A stretch of DNA of 64,000 nucleotides from a virus. The translations under genes and the position numbers were made by a program. Shown in pieces: positions 5,331 to 52,948 of the stretch (position 1 is its first letter; every line of letters begins with the position of its first letter). The notes under the pieces are model-generated. The model was not told the origin of the DNA. It did not search any database and was given only the letters and a program-made list of their open reading frames with translations. Where the stretch lies: IMG/VR virus record IMGVR_UViG_3300037424_000665, positions 41 to 64,040 of that record, one strand, 5' to 3'.

Positions 5331-5839
5331 CGGCGCCGGCCCTCAACTTGGGCAGCGGTTTCATGCTCAAGAAGGACCATATCAACTTCGATATTCTCGA
5401 TATTCAGGTGGATACCGTGAAGACCGATATCGTCGGCGACGTTCGCACGGCAACCTCCGTTTTCCAACCCTGCATGTTCGCTTCGATTTTCTGCGCGCAC
5501 GTCATCGAGCATTTCTACGCCGTCGAAGCGCAGCATCTTCTGGCGGACTGTTTCACACTGCTCCGGCCCGGCGGACTGATGGTTCTTGAGGCGCCCGATA
5601 TCGAGAAGATCATCCTGACCTACGAAGTGGGTCAGATTAACCAGGTTATCCAGGAAATCTACGGCGATCATCAATGGATGGCTAAGTACGGCGATAAGTG
5701 GATGCACAAATGGGGCTGGACGGGCAAGCGGGCCGCCGATGCCATGCAGGCGGCGGGTTTTAGGATTCGCATGATAGGCGACGGAATCTCGCATCACAAA
5801 CCATTCAGAGACTTTCGGGTGGAAGGAGTTAAGCCATGA
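5327..5839 (+). CDS. Class I SAM-dependent methyltransferase (start uncertain: CTG 5327 or ATG 5262)
   Basis: LNLGSG, FDI, CAHVIEHF, LLRPGGLMVLEAPD. Confidence 0.8.
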   Translation: MTAPALNLGSGFMLKKDHINFDILDIQVDTVKTDIVGDVRTATSVFQPCMFASIFCAHVIEHFYAVEAQHLLADCFTLLRPGGLMVLEAPDIEKIILTYEVGQINQVIQEIYGDHQWMAKYGDKWMHKWGWTGKRAADAMQAAGFRIRMIGDGISHHKPFRDFRVEGVKP

Positions 5840-6813
5840 ATTATCTCGTTACAGGGATTACGGGTTTTGCCGGCCCGCATTTGGCCAGGCTGTTGTTGGA
5901 CGAAGGCCACGAAGTCTATGGCCTGATTCGCGGCTCGAACGGCAGAGAAACCGACCTGCTGGACGTGATGACGGAGGCCGAACTCAAACGGATTCGCTGG
6001 TTAGTGGCCGACCTGGTGGACTTTCCGAGTCTCGAACAGGTCATCAGGCAGAATGCCCTTGACGGCATTTTTCACTTGGCGGCGCAGAGCCATCCGCCGA
6101 CCAGCTTTTCGCAACCCGTTATGACGTTTCAGAACAACGTCATGGGTTCGGTGAATCTCATCGAGGCCGTCGCGCAGCATCAGCCGCATTGCAAGCTGCA
6201 TTTCTGCTCGTCGTCGGAGGTCTATGGGAACCAACAGGACTGCGAATGGACCGAGGACGCCCCAATCAAGCCCGCCAATCCCTATGGGGCCACCAAAGCG
6301 GCCATCGACATCTTCATGCAGGAACGGCTCAGAAACCAATATATTCGAGGATTTATCACCAGGGCGCACTGCCATACGGGGCCGCGAAGGGGCTACCGAT
6401 TCAGCATCTCCTCGGATGCCTACCAGATTGCTAAGATGATCCTCGATCTGCAGGAGCCGGTCCTGTTGATAGGCAATCTCGATACCACCCGCCAGGTCAT
6501 GGACGTTCGGGACTGCGTTCGGGCCTATTACAGACTGATGCAGGCGGACCTCAAACACCACGTCTATAACGTCTCGACCGACCATAGTTACGCGATGCGG
6601 TTCTTCACCGAGACCCTGATAAAACTGTCGGGCCTCAAGGACGTGGTCCAGAAGATTCACCCTCCTTTCTGGCGGCCCATTGACATTCAGGCTCAGCATT
6701 CGAGGACGGAGCGTTTGCGGTCGGAGATCGACTGGAAGCCGGAAATTCCCATCGAGCAGACGTTAGGGGATTTGCTGGCGTACTGGGTGGTGAAGTTGCG
6801 AAAGAGCAAATGA
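5836..6813 (+). CDS. gmd: GDP-mannose 4,6-dehydratase / GDP-6-deoxyhexose reductase family (extended SDR)
   Basis: VTGITGFAG, HLAAQSH, SSSEVYG, YGATK, GNLD..R..MDVRD; Gmd vs Rmd not separable by eye. Confidence 0.8.
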   Translation: MNYLVTGITGFAGPHLARLLLDEGHEVYGLIRGSNGRETDLLDVMTEAELKRIRWLVADLVDFPSLEQVIRQNALDGIFHLAAQSHPPTSFSQPVMTFQNNVMGSVNLIEAVAQHQPHCKLHFCSSSEVYGNQQDCEWTEDAPIKPANPYGATKAAIDIFMQERLRNQYIRGFITRAHCHTGPRRGYRFSISSDAYQIAKMILDLQEPVLLIGNLDTTRQVMDVRDCVRAYYRLMQADLKHHVYNVSTDHSYAMRFFTETLIKLSGLKDVVQKIHPPFWRPIDIQAQHSRTERLRSEIDWKPEIPIEQTLGDLLAYWVVKLRKSK

Positions 6814-26331: not shown

Positions 26332-27045
26332 ATGAGTGTACTTGACCTACGAGAAAATCCGGCACAGCAGATGCAGGTTGTACAGGGCGTCGGCGGCGGC
26401 ATCAGCGATATGCTCAACGCCTATCGCAACCGCAAAATGGAGCAGCGGGTCATCGGCGTCTTGAACGATCCCAATATGAACGCCGAGCAGAAGCGGCTGC
26501 AACTCCTGAAGGATGCGGATTTCCTGCGCTCGCCGACGGGCCAGAAGATGATGTCCGATGAACTGTCGGGTCAGGCGGCCATGCAGATGCAGGAACGGCA
26601 GGCGCGGCTGGCGAATCTCCAGGCGGGGACGCGAGCTACGCAGGCCAGGGCCAAATACTACGAACAGGGCGGGGCAAGAAAAACAGCCACCGATCCGACG
26701 ATTCGCATCAGACGTTTGCAGGAGATCAAGAATCAAGCCTCAATCGACGGAGATGCGGAAATGGAGGCGTGGGCGGACGGCGAACTCAAGAAATTACTGC
26801 CTACTCAAGCGCAAGGACCCCAAGGACCCGTCGATGCCGTCACGATGGCCTCACCGAGCATCCAACCGACCGATATTCAGCCGCCACAACCGTCGGGAGG
26901 GACACAGCGAGAGCTTGAACCCTTGACGGACGAGCAGGCCCGGCGCAACGCCAGACCCATAGCGAGCAAGGAAGAATACGACGCCCTGCCGCCGGGGTCG
27001 TATTTCATCGCCTCCAATGGAGAGCTGAGGCAGAAAAATGGCTAA
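26332..27045 (+). CDS. DNA ejection protein 2
   Basis: Q/A/G-rich; AGGTGA RBS; lies between pilot and large internal protein. Confidence 0.6.
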   Translation: MSVLDLRENPAQQMQVVQGVGGGISDMLNAYRNRKMEQRVIGVLNDPNMNAEQKRLQLLKDADFLRSPTGQKMMSDELSGQAAMQMQERQARLANLQAGTRATQARAKYYEQGGARKTATDPTIRIRRLQEIKNQASIDGDAEMEAWADGELKKLLPTQAQGPQGPVDAVTMASPSIQPTDIQPPQPSGGTQRELEPLTDEQARRNARPIASKEEYDALPPGSYFIASNGELRQKNG

Positions 27046-30000
27046 CTGGTGGGAAGAAGGTTCGACGGCTGTAGCGGTCCCGAAAACGCAGGAGAATTTC
27101 TGGGAGAAGGATTCCACGCTTATCGCCGCTTCCGCCCGGCCGGTTGAAACGGCTATGCCTGAAATTATGGGGCCTCGCTACGAGCGCCGACCTTCAGGGA
27201 CGCAGATCATCGAGGATACGGCGTTCCCGGCGATTGACCCCGAGATTCTCAAGGTAGCCGAGGGACTCAAGGCCGGGACGGTGACGCCGCCGGTGGAACC
27301 TACGCAGGCGGTCAGGCTGGGTACGCCGAAGCGGCCGTACACACCGTATATCCAAGCTGGGATCGGCGGGTATGGTGTAACGCCGCCAGATTTGGCTGTA
27401 CGTCTTGGTAAGCACGTTCTCAATGCCTTCCCCGAACTAGCAAAGGGCATTCTCTCATCGCCACTGTCACCCGCCAGTTTCTCTGATGAAGACCTTCAGC
27501 CTTATATGCAGCAGGCCCTTAACGATGTCGGGAAGACCTTTAAGGGCAGTGCGGCAGAGACATTCAAGTTAGCCAAGACAAGGGCTGCTCAACTGGCGGC
27601 TGAGGAGAAGGTTCCCGCCTTCAAGATCGAAGCGGCCAAGCCGGGCGAGACTGGCAAGAAGGCCATCGACATTGCCGGCGGACTTGGCAAGTTTGTGACC
27701 CAATTGGCCGTCCTGCGCAGGGTAGCCCCCAAAGGCGCCCCGGATGCCGTGATCTGGGAGATGCAGAACCAGTTGACGGGTGGCGTCCCAGGACAGGGCT
27801 TGGCGACTCGCAAGGCTTTGGGGGGTATTGGCAGGATTCCCACTGGCTCTATGGTTGGCAAGGTTGCCAAGACGGGAGCAGAGTCAGGGTTGTTCGCCGG
27901 GATAACCGCCGTCACGGGCGGCAACGCCGAAGACATCATCGTTTCGGCCTTAGTGCCGGTAGCGTTCAATTCCTGGCATTTCGTCAAGCAGAAAGCCTAC
28001 ATTCAGGACTACGAGAGGCAGCTTCGCGCAGAGGCCCGCAAAGAATACAACAAACGCATCCAGGAGGGTATGCCGGAGCCTTTCAGCAGGAAGCACCTTG
28101 AGATCGACCTTCGCACCGTCGATACAGCCGTCGCAAAAGCCAAGCAGCGGATTTACAGCGACGATGCCTTTGCACCGGCAAAAGACAAATGGGAGGCCGA
28201 AAGGCAGAAGGCCCTCAAGATGGTGGCGACCGGCAGGCCGGAAATGGTTCGCAGAGGCAACGATATTCTCAACTTCATGGCGACGACCGCGCCTCCGGGA
28301 GAGCAATTGCCAATCCCCACTACCCGCGTCGGCGAGGTCATCGAGACAGCCAAAGAGATTGTAACGAAGCCCGGCCAGGCGATTCGAGAGGCCGTCAGGC
28401 CCACAAAGCCCCCCGTCATGCCTGCCGGATCCGCCTTGAAACCGCCGCAGGTTGCCCCCGAGGGGGTTACGCCACCGCCGCCCGCTATTGAAACCGGAAA
28501 AGCCCCCACAGCCGAAACGGGGGCCGTAGAGCCAGCAGCGGGAAAGCCATTAACCAGGATGTCTCCAAAGGAACGCAATACTTTCAAACTCGGTATGCGT
28601 GCTGCCTTCAAAATGAAAGATGGCCGGATTATCGAAACTGGTTACGTTCATACAATGCCCGAAGGCATGAAGACTGAGGATATTGCAGAGGTTGGATTCA
28701 CCCGCCCTGATACCAAAGAATTTCTTACAAGAGAACAAGCAGGCGAATTGACAGGCATAGATGAAGGTGTCGAACTTGAACAGTTTTCAGAAGAAATCTC
28801 TGAAGCGCCACCAGAAGAATTACCAGATAGGGAGTTGGCGGAAGAATTGCTATCGGCCAGAGAAGACCGACGGCCCAAAGAGGTTGTACCGATTCAGCAG
28901 GCCCCTCCCGCTCCCGCCGAAGGCAAGGGTCAACCTGTGCCCCAGGTAGCGGGAAAGAAGGTGATACAGGCGTATGTAAAGGATGAACAGGGGAATATCT
29001 ACACTGCAAATACACACGGCGAAGCCTATATGAAAATGGAGGATGCCGGGGGCACGGAAAAGGCTATCCGAGATTCTGGCTTTGTTGTGGACGGCAAACT
29101 GATACCAGATAGCGAAATCAACCGTGGTGAATTAGAGAAACAAGGTTATATTTCGCAACCTCCCGCCCCCGCCGAAGGCCAGGGGCAGAAGCAGGCGTGG
29201 GAGATGACTTATGCTGAAGCCGAACGGCTGTATAGACAGAATACAAAGAAATCTGTTGGTCAATCGCAAGAAATGTTAGAAGCGATGCCAACAGATGAAC
29301 TTCTTGCACTGGATGATTCGAGAATTGCAAAAGGCGACTTGGACGCGGTTGTACGACAGGAACTGGCTACTCGATACAATGCGTTGCCGCACGAGTACAA
29401 GTATGAAACCGATTTTCAACAATGGAAAGAATCTATTCGGCAAGCGGCCCTGAGCCAGCAGGCGGGCCCCACGCCTTCGGCAGAGGCGAGGGGGAAACTG
29501 GAAGGGCCAGAGAAGCCCAAAGGCGGCGGGGCAGGTGGTTCCTCTGTTGCCGCCGCATCTGCCGAAGCGACGGGATCAGGTTACGGCACGATTGCCGCCA
29601 GCGAAAAGAGTGCGTTCAGCGAGAAGACTGACCACAAACGTCTCAATGCGGAGATGCCGGCCAGACCATCGTTGCAGATCATCGACAACACGCTCAAGAT
29701 CGCTGCTCCCGCTATCCGTGGCGAACAAGCCAGGGCAACGGCCCGCGTTGTGCGAAAGAATCTCGGTCAACTGGCGCAGGAAACATCAGTGCTTCACGAG
29801 ACACTGAAAAAGGCTCATCGTGCCTTTGTCTTTATGCAGCGGGATGATATTTACAGCTTCATCGACCGCATGGAGAACGGCCAAGCTCAATCGACGCCGA
29901 AGTTGGAAGAGATTTCCAGGAAGTTGCGAGAGCTTTTGGATGACCGCAGGGATCGTGTGCAGGGACTCGGCAAGGGATTGCTCGAACACTTTTATGAGAA

Positions 30001-32713
30001 CTACTTCCCCCATATCTGGAAGAATCCCAAAGGTGCCGAGGCCGTCATTCGTCAGTTCTTCACCAAGCGGCGACTTCAAGGCCCCAAGTCCTTTCTCAAG
30101 AAGCGAACGATTATGACGGTAAAGGAAGGCCGAGAATATGGTCTTGAATTAGTCAGCGAGAACCCCGTCGATCTGGTATTGCTCAAACTCCACGAGATGG
30201 ACCGTTTCCTGATGGCGCACCGAATCATTCAGGACATGAAAGGCCGGGGTCTTATCAAGTTTGTCTATTCGAGACTGAAGGCCCCCGATGGCTATATCAA
30301 AATTGACGACCGGGCGTTCACCGTCTATATGCCACCGGAGATCACGAAGAAGGAAGCCTACGATGTGCTACTGGTCGATCAACTTATGGATGTGGCCCGG
30401 AGTATGGGAATCGACACGCAACGGTTTGTCTCTATCGGCGGTAAACGATGGGGCTTTGCTCAATGGCCGCATGGTGCGCCCGGAAGTGGACCGTTCAAGG
30501 TCAGAACGAAATACGCCGGGCCGGAGTCTGTACTGGCCCATGAAATAGGACATATCCTCGGAGCCAAGTACAATCTCTACGATACATTGCGGCGCGTCAA
30601 AGAGGGTGGATTCAGAACCGTCAGTCGCGGCGAAAAGGCAGGCGAGCAGAAGTTCGTTCCCGCCCAAGAAGCCGTTGAGCATCGCAAGACGATTGATAAG
30701 GAGTGGAGAGCGTTAGCCGATGCCCGCTACAAAGGGCAGGACGTCGGGCCGGGGTTCAAGGGATACGTTCGTAAGGCCGAGGAAAAAGAGGCTGTCATGC
30801 TCGAAGCCCTGATTCATGCCCCCGATGAATTCAAGGCGATTGCCCCGACGCTGCATAACTTGTTCACGAAGTTTCTCAACAGTCACTCCGAACTGCGCCC
30901 CATCCTGGATATGAAACCATCTTTGGTTCTCGGCCAGTCCGATGCCCAGATCAAGATACCAGGCTTTACGGTCCTCGGTCATTACTATGCGCCCGAACCT
31001 GCTGCACGGTTGCTCAACAACTACCTGTCACCGGGTCTGCGAAATAATGAAAATCTGCTCCTGAGCGGCGGTTACAATATGCTCCGCAAAGGCGGGAACA
31101 TCCTGAATCAAGCGCAGCTTTCGCTGAGCCTCTGGCACGCACTGGATACGACCATTGACACGATGAACTCGACGATGGCGATGGGCATTCGGCGGCTGAT
31201 GACGCCGGAACAAAGATTGGCGGGTCTCGGCAATATCCTCTCGGCGCCTTTGGCTCCAATTCTGCGTACCTGGGATGGCATAAGGTTGCGCAGGGCCTAC
31301 CGAAACCAAATAGACACGATTGAAGACCCCAGATTGCGAAGTTTGGTAGAAGCCGTCGTTCTGGCCAATGGGAGGGATAAGCTCGATCCCTTCTACTATA
31401 ACCATGCCACGAAGAATCTGACCAACACTCTCAGTCAGATTATCAGGGGTAGCGGACTCGAAAAACTTTCGGGGATACTTCGGTTGCCGGCGGACGCAGT
31501 CACTTCGACGTTGGAAGTCTTGGCTAAGCCGCTGATGGAATGGTATGTCCCCAGCGGCAAAATGGGCGTATTTTCAGTCATGGCCGAACATGAGATGAAA
31601 CGCGCCATGACGGGCCAGATTAGCGATGAACAGTTGCATGAGCGCCTCGTCCGAAGTTGGGATAGTGTTGATAACCGAATGGGCGAACTTGTCTATGACA
31701 ACCTCTTTTGGAACAAGACGCTCAAGGACCTCCTGATGCTCTCAATGCGTTCTGTCGGTTGGAACTTAGGTTCATTCCGTGAATACGGCGGCGCGCCTAT
31801 CGACATTCTGATGACCAAGCAGCGACTCAACCGGGGGGACCTGTGGCTGAGCCTCAAGATGTCCTATACCATAAGTTCGGTGTTGCTCTACGGGATGATC
31901 GGTGCGGCCATCATGTATCTACTCACGGGCAAGGGACCCGATGACGACCGAGACTATTTCTTCCCGAAGACAGGCCGCAAGAATCCCGATGGTTCGGATG
32001 AACGGCTATCTCTTCCTACCTACGCAAAGGACTGGTACGGCTTTGGGCTCCAACCTATTCAACAGACAAGAAACAAGGCGCATCCCTTCTGGAGCGTTCT
32101 GAATGATCTTGTTCAGAATAAAGACTTTTTCAACGTCCAGATTCGAGACCCGAAAGACCCACTCTCGAAACAGATTCTCGCCGTAGCAAAACATTTGGGT
32201 GCTGAATTTCTGCCGCTCTCAGCGAAGAACTATCAGAAGATGCAGAAGGCCGAACCGGGCCAACAGGGCAAAAACTTGTGGGTATCGCTAACGGGAATCA
32301 CATCGGCCCCGTCGTACATTACACGCTCGCCAGCCCAGAAGTTGATGTACCGATACATCGTCGAGAAAATCCCTGACAAAACAGTCTCAACGGAGCAATA
32401 TGAATTGCGGATGTATCGCAACAATCTCAAAACACTTTTGCGCAAGGGCGCGCCTGTTGACCCAATTGAAGCCAAAAAGCGATTGGGTCTTACGGAATGG
32501 AATCGGCTCAAGACCGAAGCGAAGAAGGACCCGTTTGCGGAATCGTTTTCTCGCTTGGGCCTGGAAGAAGCGTTGAACGTCTATGCAATAGCAAGCCCGG
32601 AAGAGAAGGTAAAAGTCAGTACGGTCTTGCGGACAAAATACAATAACGCAGAGACCAAAACGAAGACGCCTGAGATCAAAGAGCTTTACAACCAACTTCA
32701 AGGCCAGCAATAG
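27038..32713 (+). CDS. Large internal virion / polyvalent protein with zincin-like HExxH motif
   Basis: 1891 aa; VLAHEIGH; C-terminal helical region typical of large ejection proteins. Confidence 0.7.
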   Translation: MANWWEEGSTAVAVPKTQENFWEKDSTLIAASARPVETAMPEIMGPRYERRPSGTQIIEDTAFPAIDPEILKVAEGLKAGTVTPPVEPTQAVRLGTPKRPYTPYIQAGIGGYGVTPPDLAVRLGKHVLNAFPELAKGILSSPLSPASFSDEDLQPYMQQALNDVGKTFKGSAAETFKLAKTRAAQLAAEEKVPAFKIEAAKPGETGKKAIDIAGGLGKFVTQLAVLRRVAPKGAPDAVIWEMQNQLTGGVPGQGLATRKALGGIGRIPTGSMVGKVAKTGAESGLFAGITAVTGGNAEDIIVSALVPVAFNSWHFVKQKAYIQDYERQLRAEARKEYNKRIQEGMPEPFSRKHLEIDLRTVDTAVAKAKQRIYSDDAFAPAKDKWEAERQKALKMVATGRPEMVRRGNDILNFMATTAPPGEQLPIPTTRVGEVIETAKEIVTKPGQAIREAVRPTKPPVMPAGSALKPPQVAPEGVTPPPPAIETGKAPTAETGAVEPAAGKPLTRMSPKERNTFKLGMRAAFKMKDGRIIETGYVHTMPEGMKTEDIAEVGFTRPDTKEFLTREQAGELTGIDEGVELEQFSEEISEAPPEELPDRELAEELLSAREDRRPKEVVPIQQAPPAPAEGKGQPVPQVAGKKVIQAYVKDEQGNIYTANTHGEAYMKMEDAGGTEKAIRDSGFVVDGKLIPDSEINRGELEKQGYISQPPAPAEGQGQKQAWEMTYAEAERLYRQNTKKSVGQSQEMLEAMPTDELLALDDSRIAKGDLDAVVRQELATRYNALPHEYKYETDFQQWKESIRQAALSQQAGPTPSAEARGKLEGPEKPKGGGAGGSSVAAASAEATGSGYGTIAASEKSAFSEKTDHKRLNAEMPARPSLQIIDNTLKIAAPAIRGEQARATARVVRKNLGQLAQETSVLHETLKKAHRAFVFMQRDDIYSFIDRMENGQAQSTPKLEEISRKLRELLDDRRDRVQGLGKGLLEHFYENYFPHIWKNPKGAEAVIRQFFTKRRLQGPKSFLKKRTIMTVKEGREYGLELVSENPVDLVLLKLHEMDRFLMAHRIIQDMKGRGLIKFVYSRLKAPDGYIKIDDRAFTVYMPPEITKKEAYDVLLVDQLMDVARSMGIDTQRFVSIGGKRWGFAQWPHGAPGSGPFKVRTKYAGPESVLAHEIGHILGAKYNLYDTLRRVKEGGFRTVSRGEKAGEQKFVPAQEAVEHRKTIDKEWRALADARYKGQDVGPGFKGYVRKAEEKEAVMLEALIHAPDEFKAIAPTLHNLFTKFLNSHSELRPILDMKPSLVLGQSDAQIKIPGFTVLGHYYAPEPAARLLNNYLSPGLRNNENLLLSGGYNMLRKGGNILNQAQLSLSLWHALDTTIDTMNSTMAMGIRRLMTPEQRLAGLGNILSAPLAPILRTWDGIRLRRAYRNQIDTIEDPRLRSLVEAVVLANGRDKLDPFYYNHATKNLTNTLSQIIRGSGLEKLSGILRLPADAVTSTLEVLAKPLMEWYVPSGKMGVFSVMAEHEMKRAMTGQISDEQLHERLVRSWDSVDNRMGELVYDNLFWNKTLKDLLMLSMRSVGWNLGSFREYGGAPIDILMTKQRLNRGDLWLSLKMSYTISSVLLYGMIGAAIMYLLTGKGPDDDRDYFFPKTGRKNPDGSDERLSLPTYAKDWYGFGLQPIQQTRNKAHPFWSVLNDLVQNKDFFNVQIRDPKDPLSKQILAVAKHLGAEFLPLSAKNYQKMQKAEPGQQGKNLWVSLTGITSAPSYITRSPAQKLMYRYIVEKIPDKTVSTEQYELRMYRNNLKTLLRKGAPVDPIEAKKRLGLTEWNRLKTEAKKDPFAESFSRLGLEEALNVYAIASPEEKVKVSTVLRTKYNNAETKTKTPEIKELYNQLQGQQ

Positions 32714-47487: not shown

Positions 47488-47912
47488 CCGATCTGCAAGC
47501 CCACGAAATCATCGATGACTGCATCAAAGCCCATTGGCCGGCCTGGGACTTCAAAGGGCGGGAGTTGGCTGTTTGGGTCGAAGAGCTTCGCAAGTTCGAC
47601 TTCCACGCCGCCCGGGACGGCATAGATGCGTGCTACCGCGATTGGGACGGTAAGCAGTATCCCCGCATGAAGAGCATCTTGCGCTATATCCGCACGAGGA
47701 CTAAGAGCCGAGTCCAGGCGTCAGGCATCCGCGAACATTACAAGATTTGTCGGGCGGATGGCCGTTTGCGATGGCGACCGTTCTGGGGATTGTCCAACCT
47801 GCCCCAGCAAGACATCGAGGAAGGCGCAATAGCGAAATTAGAGCGGGCCAATATCATCGAACCCGGTCATTATATCGTTTGGCCCAAGCGAGAAGCCAAT
47901 GTGCCGTTCTGA
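47484..47912 (+). CDS. Putative helicase loader/inhibitor-like protein
   Basis: Follows initiator with ATGA overlap; W.EEL..FDF. Confidence 0.45.
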   Translation: MTDLQAHEIIDDCIKAHWPAWDFKGRELAVWVEELRKFDFHAARDGIDACYRDWDGKQYPRMKSILRYIRTRTKSRVQASGIREHYKICRADGRLRWRPFWGLSNLPQQDIEEGAIAKLERANIIEPGHYIVWPKREANVPF

Positions 47913-48027
47913 GATTTGTAGCACGATGAAGCCAAACGCAACGACGCACGCACGCATGCGCGCGAGGGACCCAGGCGGACAAAATGAAATGACAATTTTG
48001 GGACACAGTAAAAAAGGCGGTGACAAT

Positions 48028-48870
48028 ATGAGCGACATCATCCGCGTCTTTGTGAGACGGACCAGTATGACGCCGACGGACGATCTGGTGGTCGTGGGTG
48101 AGCCGCCTCTGTTCAAATTGCCGGACCTGCCCATCCATGTCTCAGTTGTCTTCAGCTGGGACATCGACCGTGCAGATGAGTTGGCTACGGCGTGGGCGGC
48201 GGTCTATGGGATTGACCGAGTATCGCTCGGGGGGCCTGCCCTGAACAACGTGAGACAGACGGGCGATCCGGACGACCCTTTCGTCCCAGGCCGCTACCTC
48301 AAGGCCGGCGTGACGATCACTTCGCGCGGCTGCCCGAAAAGTTGTCCCTGGTGCCTGGTGAGGAAACGAGAAGGCAACTTGCGGGAAATCAACATCGCCC
48401 CCGGCTGGATCGTCCAGGACAACAATCTACTGGCGTGCTCACGCGGGCATGTGGAGCGAGTCTTCGATATGCTTCGGCAGCAGAAGCGAGGCATTAAATT
48501 CTCGGGCGGTCTGGACATCGACTATTTGCAAGACTGGCACGTCAAGCTGCTCAAGAGTATCAAGGTCGATGAGCTGTGGGTGGCCTGCGACGCTGAACAA
48601 GACTTGGCCCGGATCGACAAAGCAGTGGATATGCTTAGCGACTTCTCCGTCGAGAAGAAACGTTGCTACGTGATGATCGGTTTCGGCGGCGAGACACCGG
48701 ACGAAGCTGAGCGGAGATGTGAAGCGGTTTACGACAAAGGGTTTTTGCCATTCGCTCAATTCTACCGACCGTCCGGAGGTTGGCGCAAAGTGCCTGATGA
48801 ATGGCGATTCGTACAATGGAAGTGGAGCCGGCCGGCAGCGTACCGAGCCAGAAAGGAAGCGACAGCATGA
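48028..48870 (+). CDS. Radical SAM-like protein
   Basis: TSRGCPKSCPWC; DNNLLA; FSGGLD; YVMIGF. Confidence 0.8.
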   Translation: MSDIIRVFVRRTSMTPTDDLVVVGEPPLFKLPDLPIHVSVVFSWDIDRADELATAWAAVYGIDRVSLGGPALNNVRQTGDPDDPFVPGRYLKAGVTITSRGCPKSCPWCLVRKREGNLREINIAPGWIVQDNNLLACSRGHVERVFDMLRQQKRGIKFSGGLDIDYLQDWHVKLLKSIKVDELWVACDAEQDLARIDKAVDMLSDFSVEKKRCYVMIGFGGETPDEAERRCEAVYDKGFLPFAQFYRPSGGWRKVPDEWRFVQWKWSRPAAYRARKEATA

Positions 48871-49427: not shown

Positions 49428-49725
49428 GGAGGCCTCGGACTGTTTGGCGCGGACGCTCGATGAGTTCGAAATGCTCGAAGATGAGCAGCAGAAGATTAAG
49501 AGCGACTTCAAAGCGCAGATCGAGGCCAAAGAAGCGGCGACGCGCGTGCAGAAAAACCTCGTGCGTGACAAGTACGCCCATAGGCAGGTGCGGTGCACAA
49601 TGACGATGAACTACAGCACGCTCAAGGTCATCGTGGCGCGAGATGACACCGGCGAGATCATCACTGAGAGAGCCATGAACGAGGATGAGAAGCAATTGAA
49701 GATCGACTTCGACTCGGAGGAATAG
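49339..49725 (+). CDS. Conserved phage coiled-coil protein
   Basis: L.CKLTDEE; RAM.EDEKQL. Confidence 0.65.
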   Translation: MATKTKEQPAIKTTHETRTLKCKLTDEEIREASDCLARTLDEFEMLEDEQQKIKSDFKAQIEAKEAATRVQKNLVRDKYAHRQVRCTMTMNYSTLKVIVARDDTGEIITERAMNEDEKQLKIDFDSEE

Positions 49726-49730
49726 CATCT

Positions 49731-49967
49731 ATGCCCAAGATAAAAACAAATGTCACCAAGTGGCTGCCGGCTAAGGGCCAGTGGTTCAATGTGCACCTCA
49801 AGCGCAACAATCACCTGCATTCAGCGGGGCCGTTCAAGTGCGTTGATGTGGTGGTTTACGGCGACTACGTACAACAGATCGAAGCCGTGGACAGCGAGGG
49901 CGACCGCTGGCACTTTCCGCTGTCGGAGTTTCGATTCGAGCCGGCAGCAACGCAGAAAAAGACATGA
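49731..49967 (+). CDS. Hypothetical protein
   Basis: GGAGG RBS. Confidence 0.55.
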   Translation: MPKIKTNVTKWLPAKGQWFNVHLKRNNHLHSAGPFKCVDVVVYGDYVQQIEAVDSEGDRWHFPLSEFRFEPAATQKKT

Positions 49968-50008
49968 CTCGACTCGACAAGATAAGCCTTTTTTGAAAGG
50001 AGCACAAG

Positions 50009-50587
50009 ATGTATGAAATCAACGCAACGTACAAAGGTTTAGTACCGATGATGATGGACCGATTTGCCGACCCTTCCCAAACGGAGAGGCCGTCCAAGAA
50101 AAAGGCAAAAGGGCGCAATGAAGCGGAGATTCTCGCCAAACTGCACATGGACAAAAAAGGGGTTTTTGTTCCTTCCGACAATATCCGCATGATGCTAATT
50201 GGCAACAAGCATCGTCGCGGGGCAGCACAGATTTTAGGTTCAGACATGGAAGCGGCCAAAGGGACGAAATATCTATCGATTTGCAAGGGGTTGATTTGGG
50301 TTTTGGGGACCGACGACCCGATGAAAGTTTATATCGAGCCTCGTCGGAAAACGTATGACGACGTGGATGAGCGGTCGTTCCTCAACGCTACAGGCTCACG
50401 TTCTATGGCGTATCGGCCTATCATCAAGTTGCCTTGGTCGGTGTCTTTCATTATCCAGGTCACGGATGACAATATCGACCAGAGCTTCGTCCGGCAGTTG
50501 TTCGACGTGGCGGGCCTGCGGTGCGGAGTCTGCGCCTACGGCCCGACGTTTGGCCGGTGCATTATCTCGGAGTGGAAACAACGCTAA
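50009..50587 (+). CDS. Small RAMP/Cas7-like protein (candidate guide-RNA effector)
   Basis: N-terminal strand I.ATYKGLVPMMMDRF; YRPII.LPWSVSF.I; C-terminal Gly loop AGLRCGVCAYGPTFGRCII; directly followed by phased array. Confidence 0.55.
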   Translation: MYEINATYKGLVPMMMDRFADPSQTERPSKKKAKGRNEAEILAKLHMDKKGVFVPSDNIRMMLIGNKHRRGAAQILGSDMEAAKGTKYLSICKGLIWVLGTDDPMKVYIEPRRKTYDDVDERSFLNATGSRSMAYRPIIKLPWSVSFIIQVTDDNIDQSFVRQLFDVAGLRCGVCAYGPTFGRCIISEWKQR

Positions 50588-50589
50588 CA

Positions 50590-51345
50590 GAACGCCAAAG
50601 GAAGGGACGAGACTTGAGAAGAAGTGAGCAGAACTGAGCCGAGCAGAACGCCAAAGGACCCGATGGGACCGGACTTGATACGACCAGAACCGAACAGAAC
50701 ACTAAAAGATACGAAAGGACCCGAAGGAAACAGAAGCGACCAAAGAAGAATTGAACGCAAGAAGATCGGTGTTGAAGGGAGAAGAACCGAGACGAACCGA
50801 CCAGAGTAGAGCAGAACGCCAAAGGATGTGACCTGAGTGGAAAGAAATAGAGCACAGCAGAACAGAACGCTAACAGAGTGGACCCGAGACGATATGAGAC
50901 GATTCGAACAGAATCGAACGGAACGCCACTGGAGCGGACGAGATACGAGGCGATTCGAACAGAGCCGAACAGAGCCGAACAGAACACAAGGGGACGGGAC
51001 CAGAAAAGACCAGAACCGAACAGAACGCTATTTGATTTGAAGGGAAGTGACCCGAAAAGACAAGATGTGATGGGAATTGACTTGACCAGAGAAGAACACA
51101 AGGAGAAAAGAGAAGATCAGAGTTGAGTTGAGCGGGAAAGAATAGAGAAAAATAGAACGCAAGAGGAATCAAGAAGAGCCGATTGGAAAGGAGGGGAGTT
51201 GAGTTGACATGAGCAGAATAGAACGCGAATCACCAGAAGAACTGAGCAGAAGTGAGCAGAACTGAGTAGGAAAGAAGCGATCAGAACCGAACGCCAAGGG
51301 ATCGGAATAGAGCGGAAACAAAAAGACCAAAACAGAAAGGAACAC
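50590..51345 (+). repeat. Phased pentamer array: 13 units of GAACRC-HANNN-(GANNN)6-12
   Basis: 14 anchors; 109 of 120 internal pentamers begin GA, the other 11 differ by one base; 12 of 13 anchor spacings are 5n+1. Confidence 0.95.
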
Positions 51346-51348
51346 AAG

Positions 51349-51627
51349 ATGAACATGGAAATCACAGAAGCCAGAGCAGCACAATTTGACAAACTCGAAA
51401 ATCAGGCATGCGTATTGTTGCAGGAGTACCTTGAGGGCAAGCGGACGGGCGGGGACGATATTGTAACCGCCCGCTGCGTGCTCAATGTCATCCGGGGCAA
51501 CCGCCAGACGACTACAGCACGGGATGCCCTGAGATATGCGATGGTCAGCGACTTGGGCGACCCGAAGGTGCGTGAAAGATATGTGAAGGCGACCGAGCCT
51601 GAAATCAAAAAACTGCTCAAAGCATAG
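51349..51627 (+). CDS. Hypothetical protein directly after array
   Basis: RBS overlaps last array anchor. Confidence 0.7.
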   Translation: MNMEITEARAAQFDKLENQACVLLQEYLEGKRTGGDDIVTARCVLNVIRGNRQTTTARDALRYAMVSDLGDPKVRERYVKATEPEIKKLLKA

Positions 51628-51756
51628 GGCCGGGCCTATCCAAGAGACAGACCGACCGCTTAGTGCCGGCACAAGGCAAAGGCGGCCGTTAGCCGATGAA
51701 TAGGGTGTGGGCGAATGGCCCAAACAAACAATTTCAAACAGGAAGGAAAACCGAGC

Positions 51757-52047
51757 ATGGGCTGGCAAATTGGCGACAAAATCAGGTTTGCAGACGAGCG
51801 CGGGACATACATAGTCCGAGCAGCCAGTCCGCGTTATCTGGTCTGCACCAGGCCGTATAATTTCAAACGGACTGTATTCTATACGATTGTAGATTTAGTG
51901 GTCGAGATTCGTGGTACAGAGAATCTGATTTTCGGCTTGGGTGCTGAGACGGATCGCCAGTGCTGGGAAATGCTCGTTCGCATATTGACAGGCGAGAGCG
52001 AAATCTCGCACCGCAACAGAGTGCCATTACAGATACGAAAGGACTGA
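51757..52047 (+). CDS. Conserved hypothetical protein
   Basis: GDKIRF.DER..Y.VRA...RYLVCTRP; RG.ENL.FG.G. Confidence 0.65.
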   Translation: MGWQIGDKIRFADERGTYIVRAASPRYLVCTRPYNFKRTVFYTIVDLVVEIRGTENLIFGLGAETDRQCWEMLVRILTGESEISHRNRVPLQIRKD

Positions 52048-52049
52048 GC

Positions 52050-52241
52050 ATGGACTGGATTATTGAAAACTGGGATGAGATCGTTAAGGCCGTTGGTCTG
52101 ATTATTGCAGCGGCAAGCATCATCGTGAGACTAACGCCGACGCTCCGCGACGATTCGGCGCTGCTGCCTGTCATCAAATTCCTGGGCAAGTACATAGCCC
52201 TGGACAAATACGGGACCAACGAAGTCGAGAGGCCGAAATGA
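52050..52241 (+). CDS. Holin-like small membrane protein
   Basis: MDWIIENW; one TM; TPT.RDD. Confidence 0.6.
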   Translation: MDWIIENWDEIVKAVGLIIAAASIIVRLTPTLRDDSALLPVIKFLGKYIALDKYGTNEVERPK

Positions 52242-52948
52242 GCGATATAAAAGCAATCAAACCGTTGGGGCGCAAGGCTTACGGCAGCATAGGACACTTG
52301 CCGAACAGCCGCTTAGGTCCGGGCGATCACGCTGTCCCGGATGGCTGTGCTAAAATCTGTACGCAGAAGGTCCGCGATAAACACGATCTCATTGTCGTGC
52401 AGGAGAAGCTGGATGGTTCGTGTGTTGCGGTGGCTCTGCTTAATGGACGTTTGTATCCGTTGGGTCGTGCTGGATGGTCTGCGGAGTCCTCGCCTTACGA
52501 ACAGCATCAGCTCTTTGCGCAATGGGTTTGGTGCAACGAGGACAGGTTTCGTGCCGTTCTTCAAGAGGGGGAGCGCATCGTTGGCGAGTGGTTGGCGCAG
52601 GCACACGGGACTATCTACGATCTGAGCGTGAACGAACCGTTCGCGGCTTTCGATATCATGTGCGAGGATAAGCGGTTAAGCTACCACGTTTTTCAAGAGC
52701 GAATTGAGAGGCGCTTTTGCACGCCGACGCTGCTCCATGAAGGCGGTGCCATCTCCGTCCCAGAGGCCATGAAGTTGCACGAACAGTGGCACTGGCCTTG
52801 TGACCAAGTCGAGGGGATTGTTTATCGCGTCCACCGCAAGGGGCAAGTCGATTTTCTGGCCAAGTGGGTGCGGTTCGATAAGATTGACGGCAAATATCTT
52901 CCAGAGGTGAGCGGTAAAGACGCTGTTTGGAATTGGAGGCCGCGATGA
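52238..52948 (+). CDS. ATP-dependent RNA ligase family protein
   Basis: QEKLDGS (motif I KxDG), GEW, FDI, EGIVYR, K. Confidence 0.8.
   Translation: MSDIKAIKPLGRKAYGSIGHLPNSRLGPGDHAVPDGCAKICTQKVRDKHDLIVVQEKLDGSCVAVALLNGRLYPLGRAGWSAESSPYEQHQLFAQWVWCNEDRFRAVLQEGERIVGEWLAQAHGTIYDLSVNEPFAAFDIMCEDKRLSYHVFQERIERRFCTPTLLHEGGAISVPEAMKLHEQWHWPCDQVEGIVYRVHRKGQVDFLAKWVRFDKIDGKYLPEVSGKDAVWNWRPR

Follow-up and report, generated by a model that had tools for sequence, protein, structure and literature searches.

VIPR systems are a very recent addition (2026) to the RNA-guided systems, and only the GGY/NN type has so far been studied biochemically and structurally. The report that describes them presents phage-borne loci in which a small ancestral RAMP protein (Vipr) is accompanied by vrRNAs of 9–16 YNNGG repeats with a 3′ tail; VIPR reads DNA by a one-base-skip code and represses rival phages and satellites (bioRxiv 10.64898/2026.04.26.720920). 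Our study concerns a stretch of 64,000 nucleotides, hereafter the window, from the IMG/VR virus record IMGVR_UViG_3300037424_000665 (positions 41 to 64,040), in which a gene for a 192-aa protein is followed on the same strand by an array of phased GANNN pentamers and by a gene for a small helical protein. Protein homology and fold, the anatomy of the array, the conserved module and the pattern of substitutions in a sister phage indicate, with a probability that we put at about 0.82, that this locus is a VIPR system in a complete 64-kb tailed phage, consisting of a vipr gene, a co-directional array of 13 candidate guide RNAs and the small helical protein. Rather than a new class of system, this is a variant of the published VIPR, with a GA motif, a changed loop, apparently tail-less head-to-tail units and an array placed between vipr and the helical protein. 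An initial annotation, made from the sequence without database searches, had pointed to viral systems that pair a small RAMP protein with GGY/NN pentamer RNAs and had proposed that a GA-based code would be a variant of them; such systems are described in the report cited above, and the fixed part here is indeed GA and not GGY. What that annotation observed was confirmed, and its reading of the locus proved right in most respects.

Comparison with described systems

According to the same report (10.64898/2026.04.26.720920), VIPR comprises seven types and has accessory vap genes, and the alternative repeats NNNGG, YNNNG and NNNNG as well as 'staggered' arrays are known (methods, fig. S17–S18). 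The NNNGG type has a relaxed third fixed position, 'a related consensus' is allowed for other types, and Escherichia phage SUSP1 has one vrRNA upstream of vipr. In the cryo-EM structure of the SUSP1 system (10.64898/2026.04.26.720927) each repeat binds one protomer, and each protomer skips one target base, for which it has a pocket; every fixed motif is shared between two adjacent protomers. H17 and D177 read the first G, R138 and W178 hold the second, and the pyrimidine lies in a narrow pocket that includes R179. The skip base of the published code falls on the wobble position. A further report lists 21 period-5 clusters with non-GGY motifs such as GAC/NN, CAC/NN, WGT/NN and TGH/NN beside Vipr-like folds (10.64898/2026.10.21.760802).

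The locus has much in common with the type II VIPR of SUSP1 and of a Pseudomonas fulva prophage. All are phage-borne and encode a single-RRM RAMP protein of ~20 kDa whose thumb and glycine-rich loop are homologous in sequence between the systems; all have, beside the gene, vrRNA arrays of ~10 pentanucleotide repeats with fixed and hypervariable positions; all have a small further gene in the operon, which here is a candidate accessory gene; and none has cas genes or a CRISPR array. The differences lie in the fixed motif, which is GA with three variable positions here and GGY with two in SUSP1 and P. fulva, so that the canonical GGY/NN (YNNGG) consensus does not describe the window array, and in the loop, which is A-Y-G here and D-W-R in SUSP1, with no equivalent of H17. 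Furthermore, the array separates vipr from the small gene instead of following the two, and its units abut via a 6-nt junction without a spacer, a predicted structured tail or a pseudoknot, whereas the SUSP1 tail is a pseudoknot. The candidate accessory protein here has no detectable similarity to anything named.

With the non-canonical VIPR arrays, the locus shares the period of 5, a non-GGY fixed part, a Vipr-like fold and ~10 repeats per unit. The YNNNG type, written as N-G-Y-N-N, corresponds to the register that we favour below with A in place of Y, and such arrays were seen at four related loci (L051–L054). The motifs that the available text of 10.64898/2026.04.26.720920 and 10.64898/2026.10.21.760802 names do not include a fixed G-A whose third position is free, nor does that text contain a residue-level account of motif changes; the GA clade may nevertheless already be catalogued among the seven published types. 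The compact architecture of the array is not specific to the GA clade, because it is also displayed by a canonical GGY-NN array at locus L047, in a Sedimentisphaerales species genome (G096:C57; minus strand, starting near position 356 of the reverse complement). That array directly follows the stop codon of a Vipr-like gene with the loop G-D-Y-R; its units lie head to tail, close with the short constant sequence GGTAGGGATGA and shift the phase by +1.

The backbone subunits of the Cas7 family in class 1 CRISPR effectors (Csm3, Cmr4, type VII Cas7) oligomerize along a guide RNA at a fixed step with bases flipped out at regular intervals, and they have an RRM core, a thumb hairpin and a C-terminal glycine-rich loop in common with Vipr. 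The step along the guide is 5 nt here compared to 6 in these effectors, and the guide is itself a repeat array, not a spacer between CRISPR repeats. The Cas5, Cas6, Cas10, Cas11 and adaptation genes and the CRISPR array of class 1 CRISPR-Cas systems are not present here, only the Cas7-like fold being held in common; the 64-kb window contained no CRISPR-like direct repeats, and no cas families were found among the window proteins scanned.

Anatomy of the array

The first anchor of the array lies 2 nt past the stop codon of the 192-aa open reading frame (ORF; TAA, 50585–50587), where the initial annotation had placed it. Each unit in the window is built from a 6-nt junction, C-[C/T/A]-A-NNN, 5–12 GANNN pentamers and a closing GAACR pentamer (Table 1). 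All 14 of the GAACRC anchors that had been listed, from 50590 to 51340, and the 13 spacings between them (56, 51, 56, 61, 51, 56, 61, 41, 71, 61, 66, 68 and 51 nt) are present, and every spacing but one equals 1 modulo 5; the 68-nt spacing, of the unit at 51221, is a +2 phase slip and was rightly singled out as the sole irregular one. The count of internal pentamers required a small correction: 109 start with GA, as first reported, out of a total of 121 rather than 120, and the other 12 (not 11) are one substitution off.

Table 1. Features of the VIPR locus and its surroundings in the window
Feature	Position	Strand	Basis or remarks
Short upstream run of five in-phase GA pentamers	49961..49985	+	GACAT GACTC GACTC GACAA GATAA; run detection, sequence reading
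vipr gene, 192-aa single-domain RAMP (Cas7-like) protein	50009..50587	+	homology, fold
Candidate vrRNA array	50588..51348	+	leading GAACG, then 13 head-to-tail units
Phased GANNN pentamer tract, 13 units	50590-51345	+	GAACRC anchors and in-phase pentamers
Limits of units 1-7	50595-50650, 50651-50701, 50702-50757, 50758-50818, 50819-50869, 50870-50925, 50926-50986		
Limits of units 8-13	50987-51027, 51028-51098, 51099-51159, 51160-51225, 51226-51293, 51294-51344		13-nt irregular junction in 51226-51293
92-aa all-helical protein, conserved	51349..51627	+	directly after array
Terminator-like hairpin	51839..51855	+	consensus scan; count of such sites in region not above shuffles

The units in the window have 7–13 in-phase pentamers each. 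Over 110 in-phase pentamers, position 1 is G in 102 and position 2 is A in 108; position 3 is occupied by A in 41, C in 21, G in 33 and T in 15. The entropy at positions 3–5 is 1.90–1.92 bits, and 1.95–1.99 bits without the last three pentamers of each unit. A GA is followed by another at +5 nt 98 times, compared to 12.2 ± 3.5 (maximum 25) in 2000 mononucleotide shuffles, and the distance spectrum of GA has peaks at 5, 10 and 15 nt only. Tandem Repeats Finder returned only fragments of the array, because the units are not copies of each other. The array RNA is 72 % purine and folds no better than its shuffles (z −0.12), and an Rfam scan of 49700–51800 gave no family match, so there is no hammerhead between units.

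Two mechanical ORFs on the minus strand, 50562–51101 (179 aa) and 51169–51768 (199 aa), lie antisense to the array and the small gene; both have a high content of Ser, Leu, Phe and Val, and a gene caller could annotate them as hypothetical proteins. The 761-nt array contains 7 TTA, CTA or TCA trinucleotides compared to ~36 expected at uniform composition, and these ORFs are compositional artefacts, because the three trinucleotides are nearly absent from the purine-rich strand. The earlier statement that no long ORF is maintained needs this qualification for the minus strand.

A 17-nt motif, GAAAGGA[G/A]CACAAGATG, stands ahead of both the vipr start (49995–50011) and the small-gene start (51335–51351), and the unit end GAACRC resembles this ribosome-binding/start motif. 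Because the motif is repeated there, the last anchor, GAACAC at 51340, also belongs to the duplicated ribosome-binding/start region. The short run upstream of vipr overlaps the stop codon of the ORF 49731–49967 and may be a degenerate or solo guide unit; mini-arrays likewise lie upstream at four of the related loci (L002, L005, L008 and L012).

The Vipr protein, related loci and a sister phage

The suspicion that the 192-aa gene encodes a RAMP-like protein was borne out, as Vipr has the RAMP/Cas7 fold with a C-terminal glycine-rich loop, GLRCGVCAYGPTFGR (residues 169–183), a thumb hairpin with R136-P137, and a homologue in SUSP1 Vipr. The latter (36pp_D) was its sole sequence match in PDB, with an E value of 1.2e-4 for the single sequence and 2.4e-7 with a profile of 44, and tblastn led to a phage with GGYNN arrays, Pseudomonas phage LESphi2 (31 % identity, E 1e-7). 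In structural alignments with Cas7-family structures the sequence identity was 6–16 %. The alignment between SUSP1 and window Vipr is remote (~25 % identity); in it, the SUSP1 loop D177-W178-R179 aligns with A176-Y177-G178, a triplet that varies little or not at all within the family. R138 has its counterpart in R136, and H17 is lost to a deletion of two residues.

Close relatives of the Vipr family in metagenomes numbered 118. Sixteen loci were compared, 14 on IMG/VR contigs and 2 on contigs of metagenome-assembled genomes (MAGs), with 45–100 % protein identity. The expectation that homologous genes would always be followed by phased arrays held, as in-phase GA runs were found directly downstream of vipr, on the same strand, in 16/16 loci. 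GA was the only dinucleotide that passed the phasing test in these loci, and the opposite strand gave 0–1 runs. Family-wide, the junction reads G-A-A-M-R / C-A-A-N-N-N / G-A-N-N-N, each array having its own short constant end, and its length is exactly 6 nt in 80 of 97 junctions, which therefore produces a +1 phase shift per unit; the units hold 5–15 pentamers, with a mode of 10. The architecture of the array is kept at 45 % protein identity, while the array sequences are not. Members of the family are also found in NCBI (e.g. MFA5692285.1), and the family is rare in Sedimentisphaerales species genomes (3/301, two of which are distant canonical relatives). The vipr region and array are identical between L016 (JBBACV010000011.1, a MAG labelled Acholeplasmataceae) and the 51-kb viral contig G009 (IMGVR_UViG_3300029288_000238), and the Acholeplasmataceae label is probably a binning artefact, not a host assignment.

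A sister phage, G001 (IMGVR_UViG_3300031949_000031), comes from the same sample series, with 91–97 % nucleotide identity and an identical Vipr protein. In its array (L001:6577–7186) the promoter-proximal units differ from units 1–5 of the window and the distal units are common to both phages, which suggests that guide turnover is polarized. Within the shared units, 9/9 in-phase substitutions fall at N positions and 0 at the 152 G/A positions, and the single length change is a 5-nt indel. This pattern fits specificity-carrying guides on a fixed scaffold and is incompatible with a coding region. The initial annotation would have been refuted by translation of the array as a conserved protein; the array cannot encode one, because of its 5-nt period and the 5-nt indel in the sister phage. 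Unit turnover between phages with identical Vipr points to fast retargeting in phage–phage conflict.

Proposed mechanism and register of the guides

By analogy with SUSP1, the array would be transcribed and cut into unit-length vrRNAs, along each of which Vipr protomers would polymerize, one per pentamer, sequestering the fixed bases and presenting the variable ones. The resulting filament would bind double-stranded DNA with a matching triplet-spaced sequence and block its transcription, the silenced target most likely lying in a competing phage, prophage or satellite. The earlier proposal that GA is gripped by one subunit does not agree with the solved system, in which the fixed motif is shared between neighbours. 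Its other proposal, that the variable bases spell a gapped target, has indirect support in their codon-like composition, with the amendment that probably only two of the three bases are read.

Provided that the locus works as a VIPR system, the register that we favour, at somewhat better than even odds, is N-G-A-N-N, in which the two bases after GA would be read and the third variable base left unread. Judging from the alignment with SUSP1, the G would lie in the site for the second G of GGY, for which R136 and Y177 are kept, and the A in an enlarged pyrimidine pocket, SUSP1 R179 being G178 here. The base before the G would occupy the first-G site without its readers, D177 having become A176 and H17 falling in the deletion, and the third variable base would, as in the published code, stand opposite the skipped wobble base of the target. 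This register is favoured because the readers of the first G are lost, the holders of the second G are kept and the purine-excluding pocket is without its arginine, because loop and motif vary together across clades, and because the published skip base is the wobble base and N3N4 fits codon positions 1–2.

The profile found 1290 cluster representatives across the superfamily, of which the GA clade formed only the top 11–14. Loops of the form x-aromatic-G pair with NGA-NN arrays in 18 loci (the 16 above with L049 and L050), S/A-aromatic-R loops with N-G-C, N-G-T or T-G-T arrays (NGY-NN/TGT-NN; L051–L054), and D-aromatic-R loops with GGY-NN arrays (AYO145A, a SUSP1 proxy, LESphi2 and L047). Among the variable bases of 99 distinct guides, a codon-like composition is confined to frame N3N4N5 (z 5.1 against letter shuffles, 3.3 against position-wise permutation). 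Stop codons among the triplets decoded in this frame number 30 compared to 46.5 (P 0.001), which is a hint only, with a weaker depletion in the other frames. Over 606 variable pentamers from 14 arrays, the triplets TAA (2), TAG (2), TTA (3) and CTA (2) seldom occur, and GAC (24) is the most frequent. The bias in the variable triplets may reflect target coding sequence, a preference of the protein or avoidance of out-of-phase GA.

We tentatively propose, at odds below even, that the changes D177 to A and R179 to G, together with the loss of H17, re-code the fixed motif from G-G-Y to N-G-A, and that the guides are purine-rich, unstructured, tail-less and cut at the GAACR/C junction. If this is true, the protein determinants of the fixed motif would be readable from sequence and swappable, guide design would be subject to different constraints, and the third variable base may make the guides more specific than the published code, which reads two bases of three. 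The GA clade, in which exactly the GGY-reading loop residues are changed, leaves the picture of what VIPR is unchanged and offers a natural experiment on the residues that set the fixed motif; a loop swap is predicted to switch the motif. Guides without a structured tail, packed in a compact array that delimits its own units, could make multiplexed programmable repression simpler.

Several points weigh against the VIPR interpretation and the favoured register. Published systems have a structured 3′ tail, whereas only a short constant end without predicted structure is found here. The purine bias at N3 could be a preference of the protein, not a sign of codon position 1. The register rests on a remote alignment and on only three or four independent, related clades, and L052 has a GGC-NN array upstream though its loop is without the aspartate. 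This locus (L052:1672–2700, Logan SRR14194061 contig) encodes a Vipr relative with an S-W-R loop and has an N-GC-NN array downstream; one protein may accept both arrays, or the arrays may serve different proteins. Finally, 109 guides from the 16 arrays, tried under 10 pairing rules, matched 0.52 Mb of related phage genomes no better than they matched the reversed-sequence null.

Alternative explanations and target searches

The same system could instead keep the canonical register, with G-A in both guanine sites, N3 in a relaxed pyrimidine pocket and N4N5 read (target xN4N5). This is the simplest mapping of GANNN onto GGYNN; N3 is biased (65 % purine, with C depleted at this first variable position, to 13 %), as a pocket-bound base might be, and the published NNNGG type also has a relaxed third fixed position. 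We consider it unlikely, as both SUSP1 readers of the first G are lost and the holders of the second are kept, clades in which only the aspartate is lost have lost the first G and not the second, and N4N5 does not resemble codon positions 1–2 (z 0.5), whereas N3N4 does (z 4.7).

It is more doubtful still that the target pairs with all three variable bases, so that triplets would be read contiguously and GA would bulge out as 2 nt at each protomer. Three positions are hypervariable, and the full N3N4N5 triplet is codon-like, with TAA, TAG and TTA depleted in frame. The solved filament, however, has its pocket for one skipped target base per protomer, and the codon signal, 0.045, exceeds the null (−0.07 to −0.20) but falls short of real coding fragments (0.26), which is what one free position would be expected to give. 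The contiguous 21-mer of the longest unit had no exact match in IMG/VR.

A non-targeting role for the array has only a slight probability. Under this explanation it would act as a decoy or sponge RNA and titrate the Vipr of a rival, or it would be a set of protein-bound DNA repeats, such as iterons or sites for the 92-aa protein. Satellites are reported (10.64898/2026.10.15.759431) to encode stand-alone vrRNAs that redirect a phage's VIPR; the locus sits in a replication/recombination module; and targets have not been found. Against it, the array accompanies its own vipr in every locus compared, iterons are normally near-identical copies, and the variable positions are hypervariable between units and sister phages with GA fixed, which is the signature of specificity-carrying guides.

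The target searches themselves decide little. The local test covered pairing periods 2–5 on both strands of VIPR-bearing phage genomes with arrays masked, and its best matches, 15/16 and 21/27, are at the expected noise level. Exact scans of IMG/VR with six patterns (unit 9 as xN4N5, as N3N4x over pentamers 1–10 and 3–12 and as the contiguous 21-mer; units 4 and 11 as N3N4x) gave 0 matches, as did an exact scan of JGI metagenomes with unit 9 as N3N4x and a search of 301 Sedimentisphaerales genomes with 12 pentamers of unit 9 at ≤3 mismatches. The decoding of units against phage sequences that the initial annotation had suggested thus produced no match above the null, with exact matching only and the host not identified. 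The empty scans are uninformative rather than negative, because they relied on exact matching in large collections, most units have 5–10 variable pentamers and the host has not been identified.

A slippage microsatellite or a translated low-complexity protein, for which the purine-rich simple sequence and the two minus-strand ORFs could speak, was rejected, in line with the initial annotation, as the variable positions have ~2 bits of entropy, no reading frame is compatible with the 5-nt period and the 5-nt indels, the scarcity of reverse-stop trinucleotides accounts for the ORFs, and architecture is conserved where sequence is not.

Neighbouring genes and genome context

The 92-aa protein encoded after the array is a candidate VIPR accessory (vap-like) gene product, judging from its position and conservation. 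Homologues adjoining the array were found by tblastn in 12/15 other loci and by ORF reading in the other three (L011, L013 and L016), being shorter in L013 and L016. A protein of ~90 aa is thereby syntenic in 16/16 loci, usually straight after the array, and the motif AKNRQTLTAR is conserved in the alignment. The AlphaFold2 (AF2) model has four helices, with a predicted local distance difference test (pLDDT) score of 75.7; Foldseek gave no PDB match below E 1, no Pfam family was found, and PHROGs and the protein atlas gave nothing usable.

The hairpin in Table 1 is the first terminator-like site on the plus strand past the vipr–array–small gene module, the consensus scan having found none on that strand between 49928 and 51839, and it may mark the end of the transcription unit. 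No sigma-70-like promoter was found upstream on the plus strand; the host is probably non-proteobacterial, and the consensus may not apply.

The virus record has 64,140 bases and is rated 100 % complete. The window encodes a terminase, a portal, a virion protein, RecT, an SbcC-like protein, a replication initiator fused to HNH, and RusA, and the neighbours of the locus within its replication/recombination module are RusA, a radical SAM protein, the replication initiator and an RNA-ligase-like protein. Other genes of the window include those for the radical SAM domain protein (47899–48870), the RNA-ligase-like protein (52238–52948; phrog_38169, phrog_548), a nucleotide-sugar epimerase (5836–6813) and a 1891-aa ORF (27038–32713). 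The latter has no PHROG match and is probably a tail or host-recognition protein.

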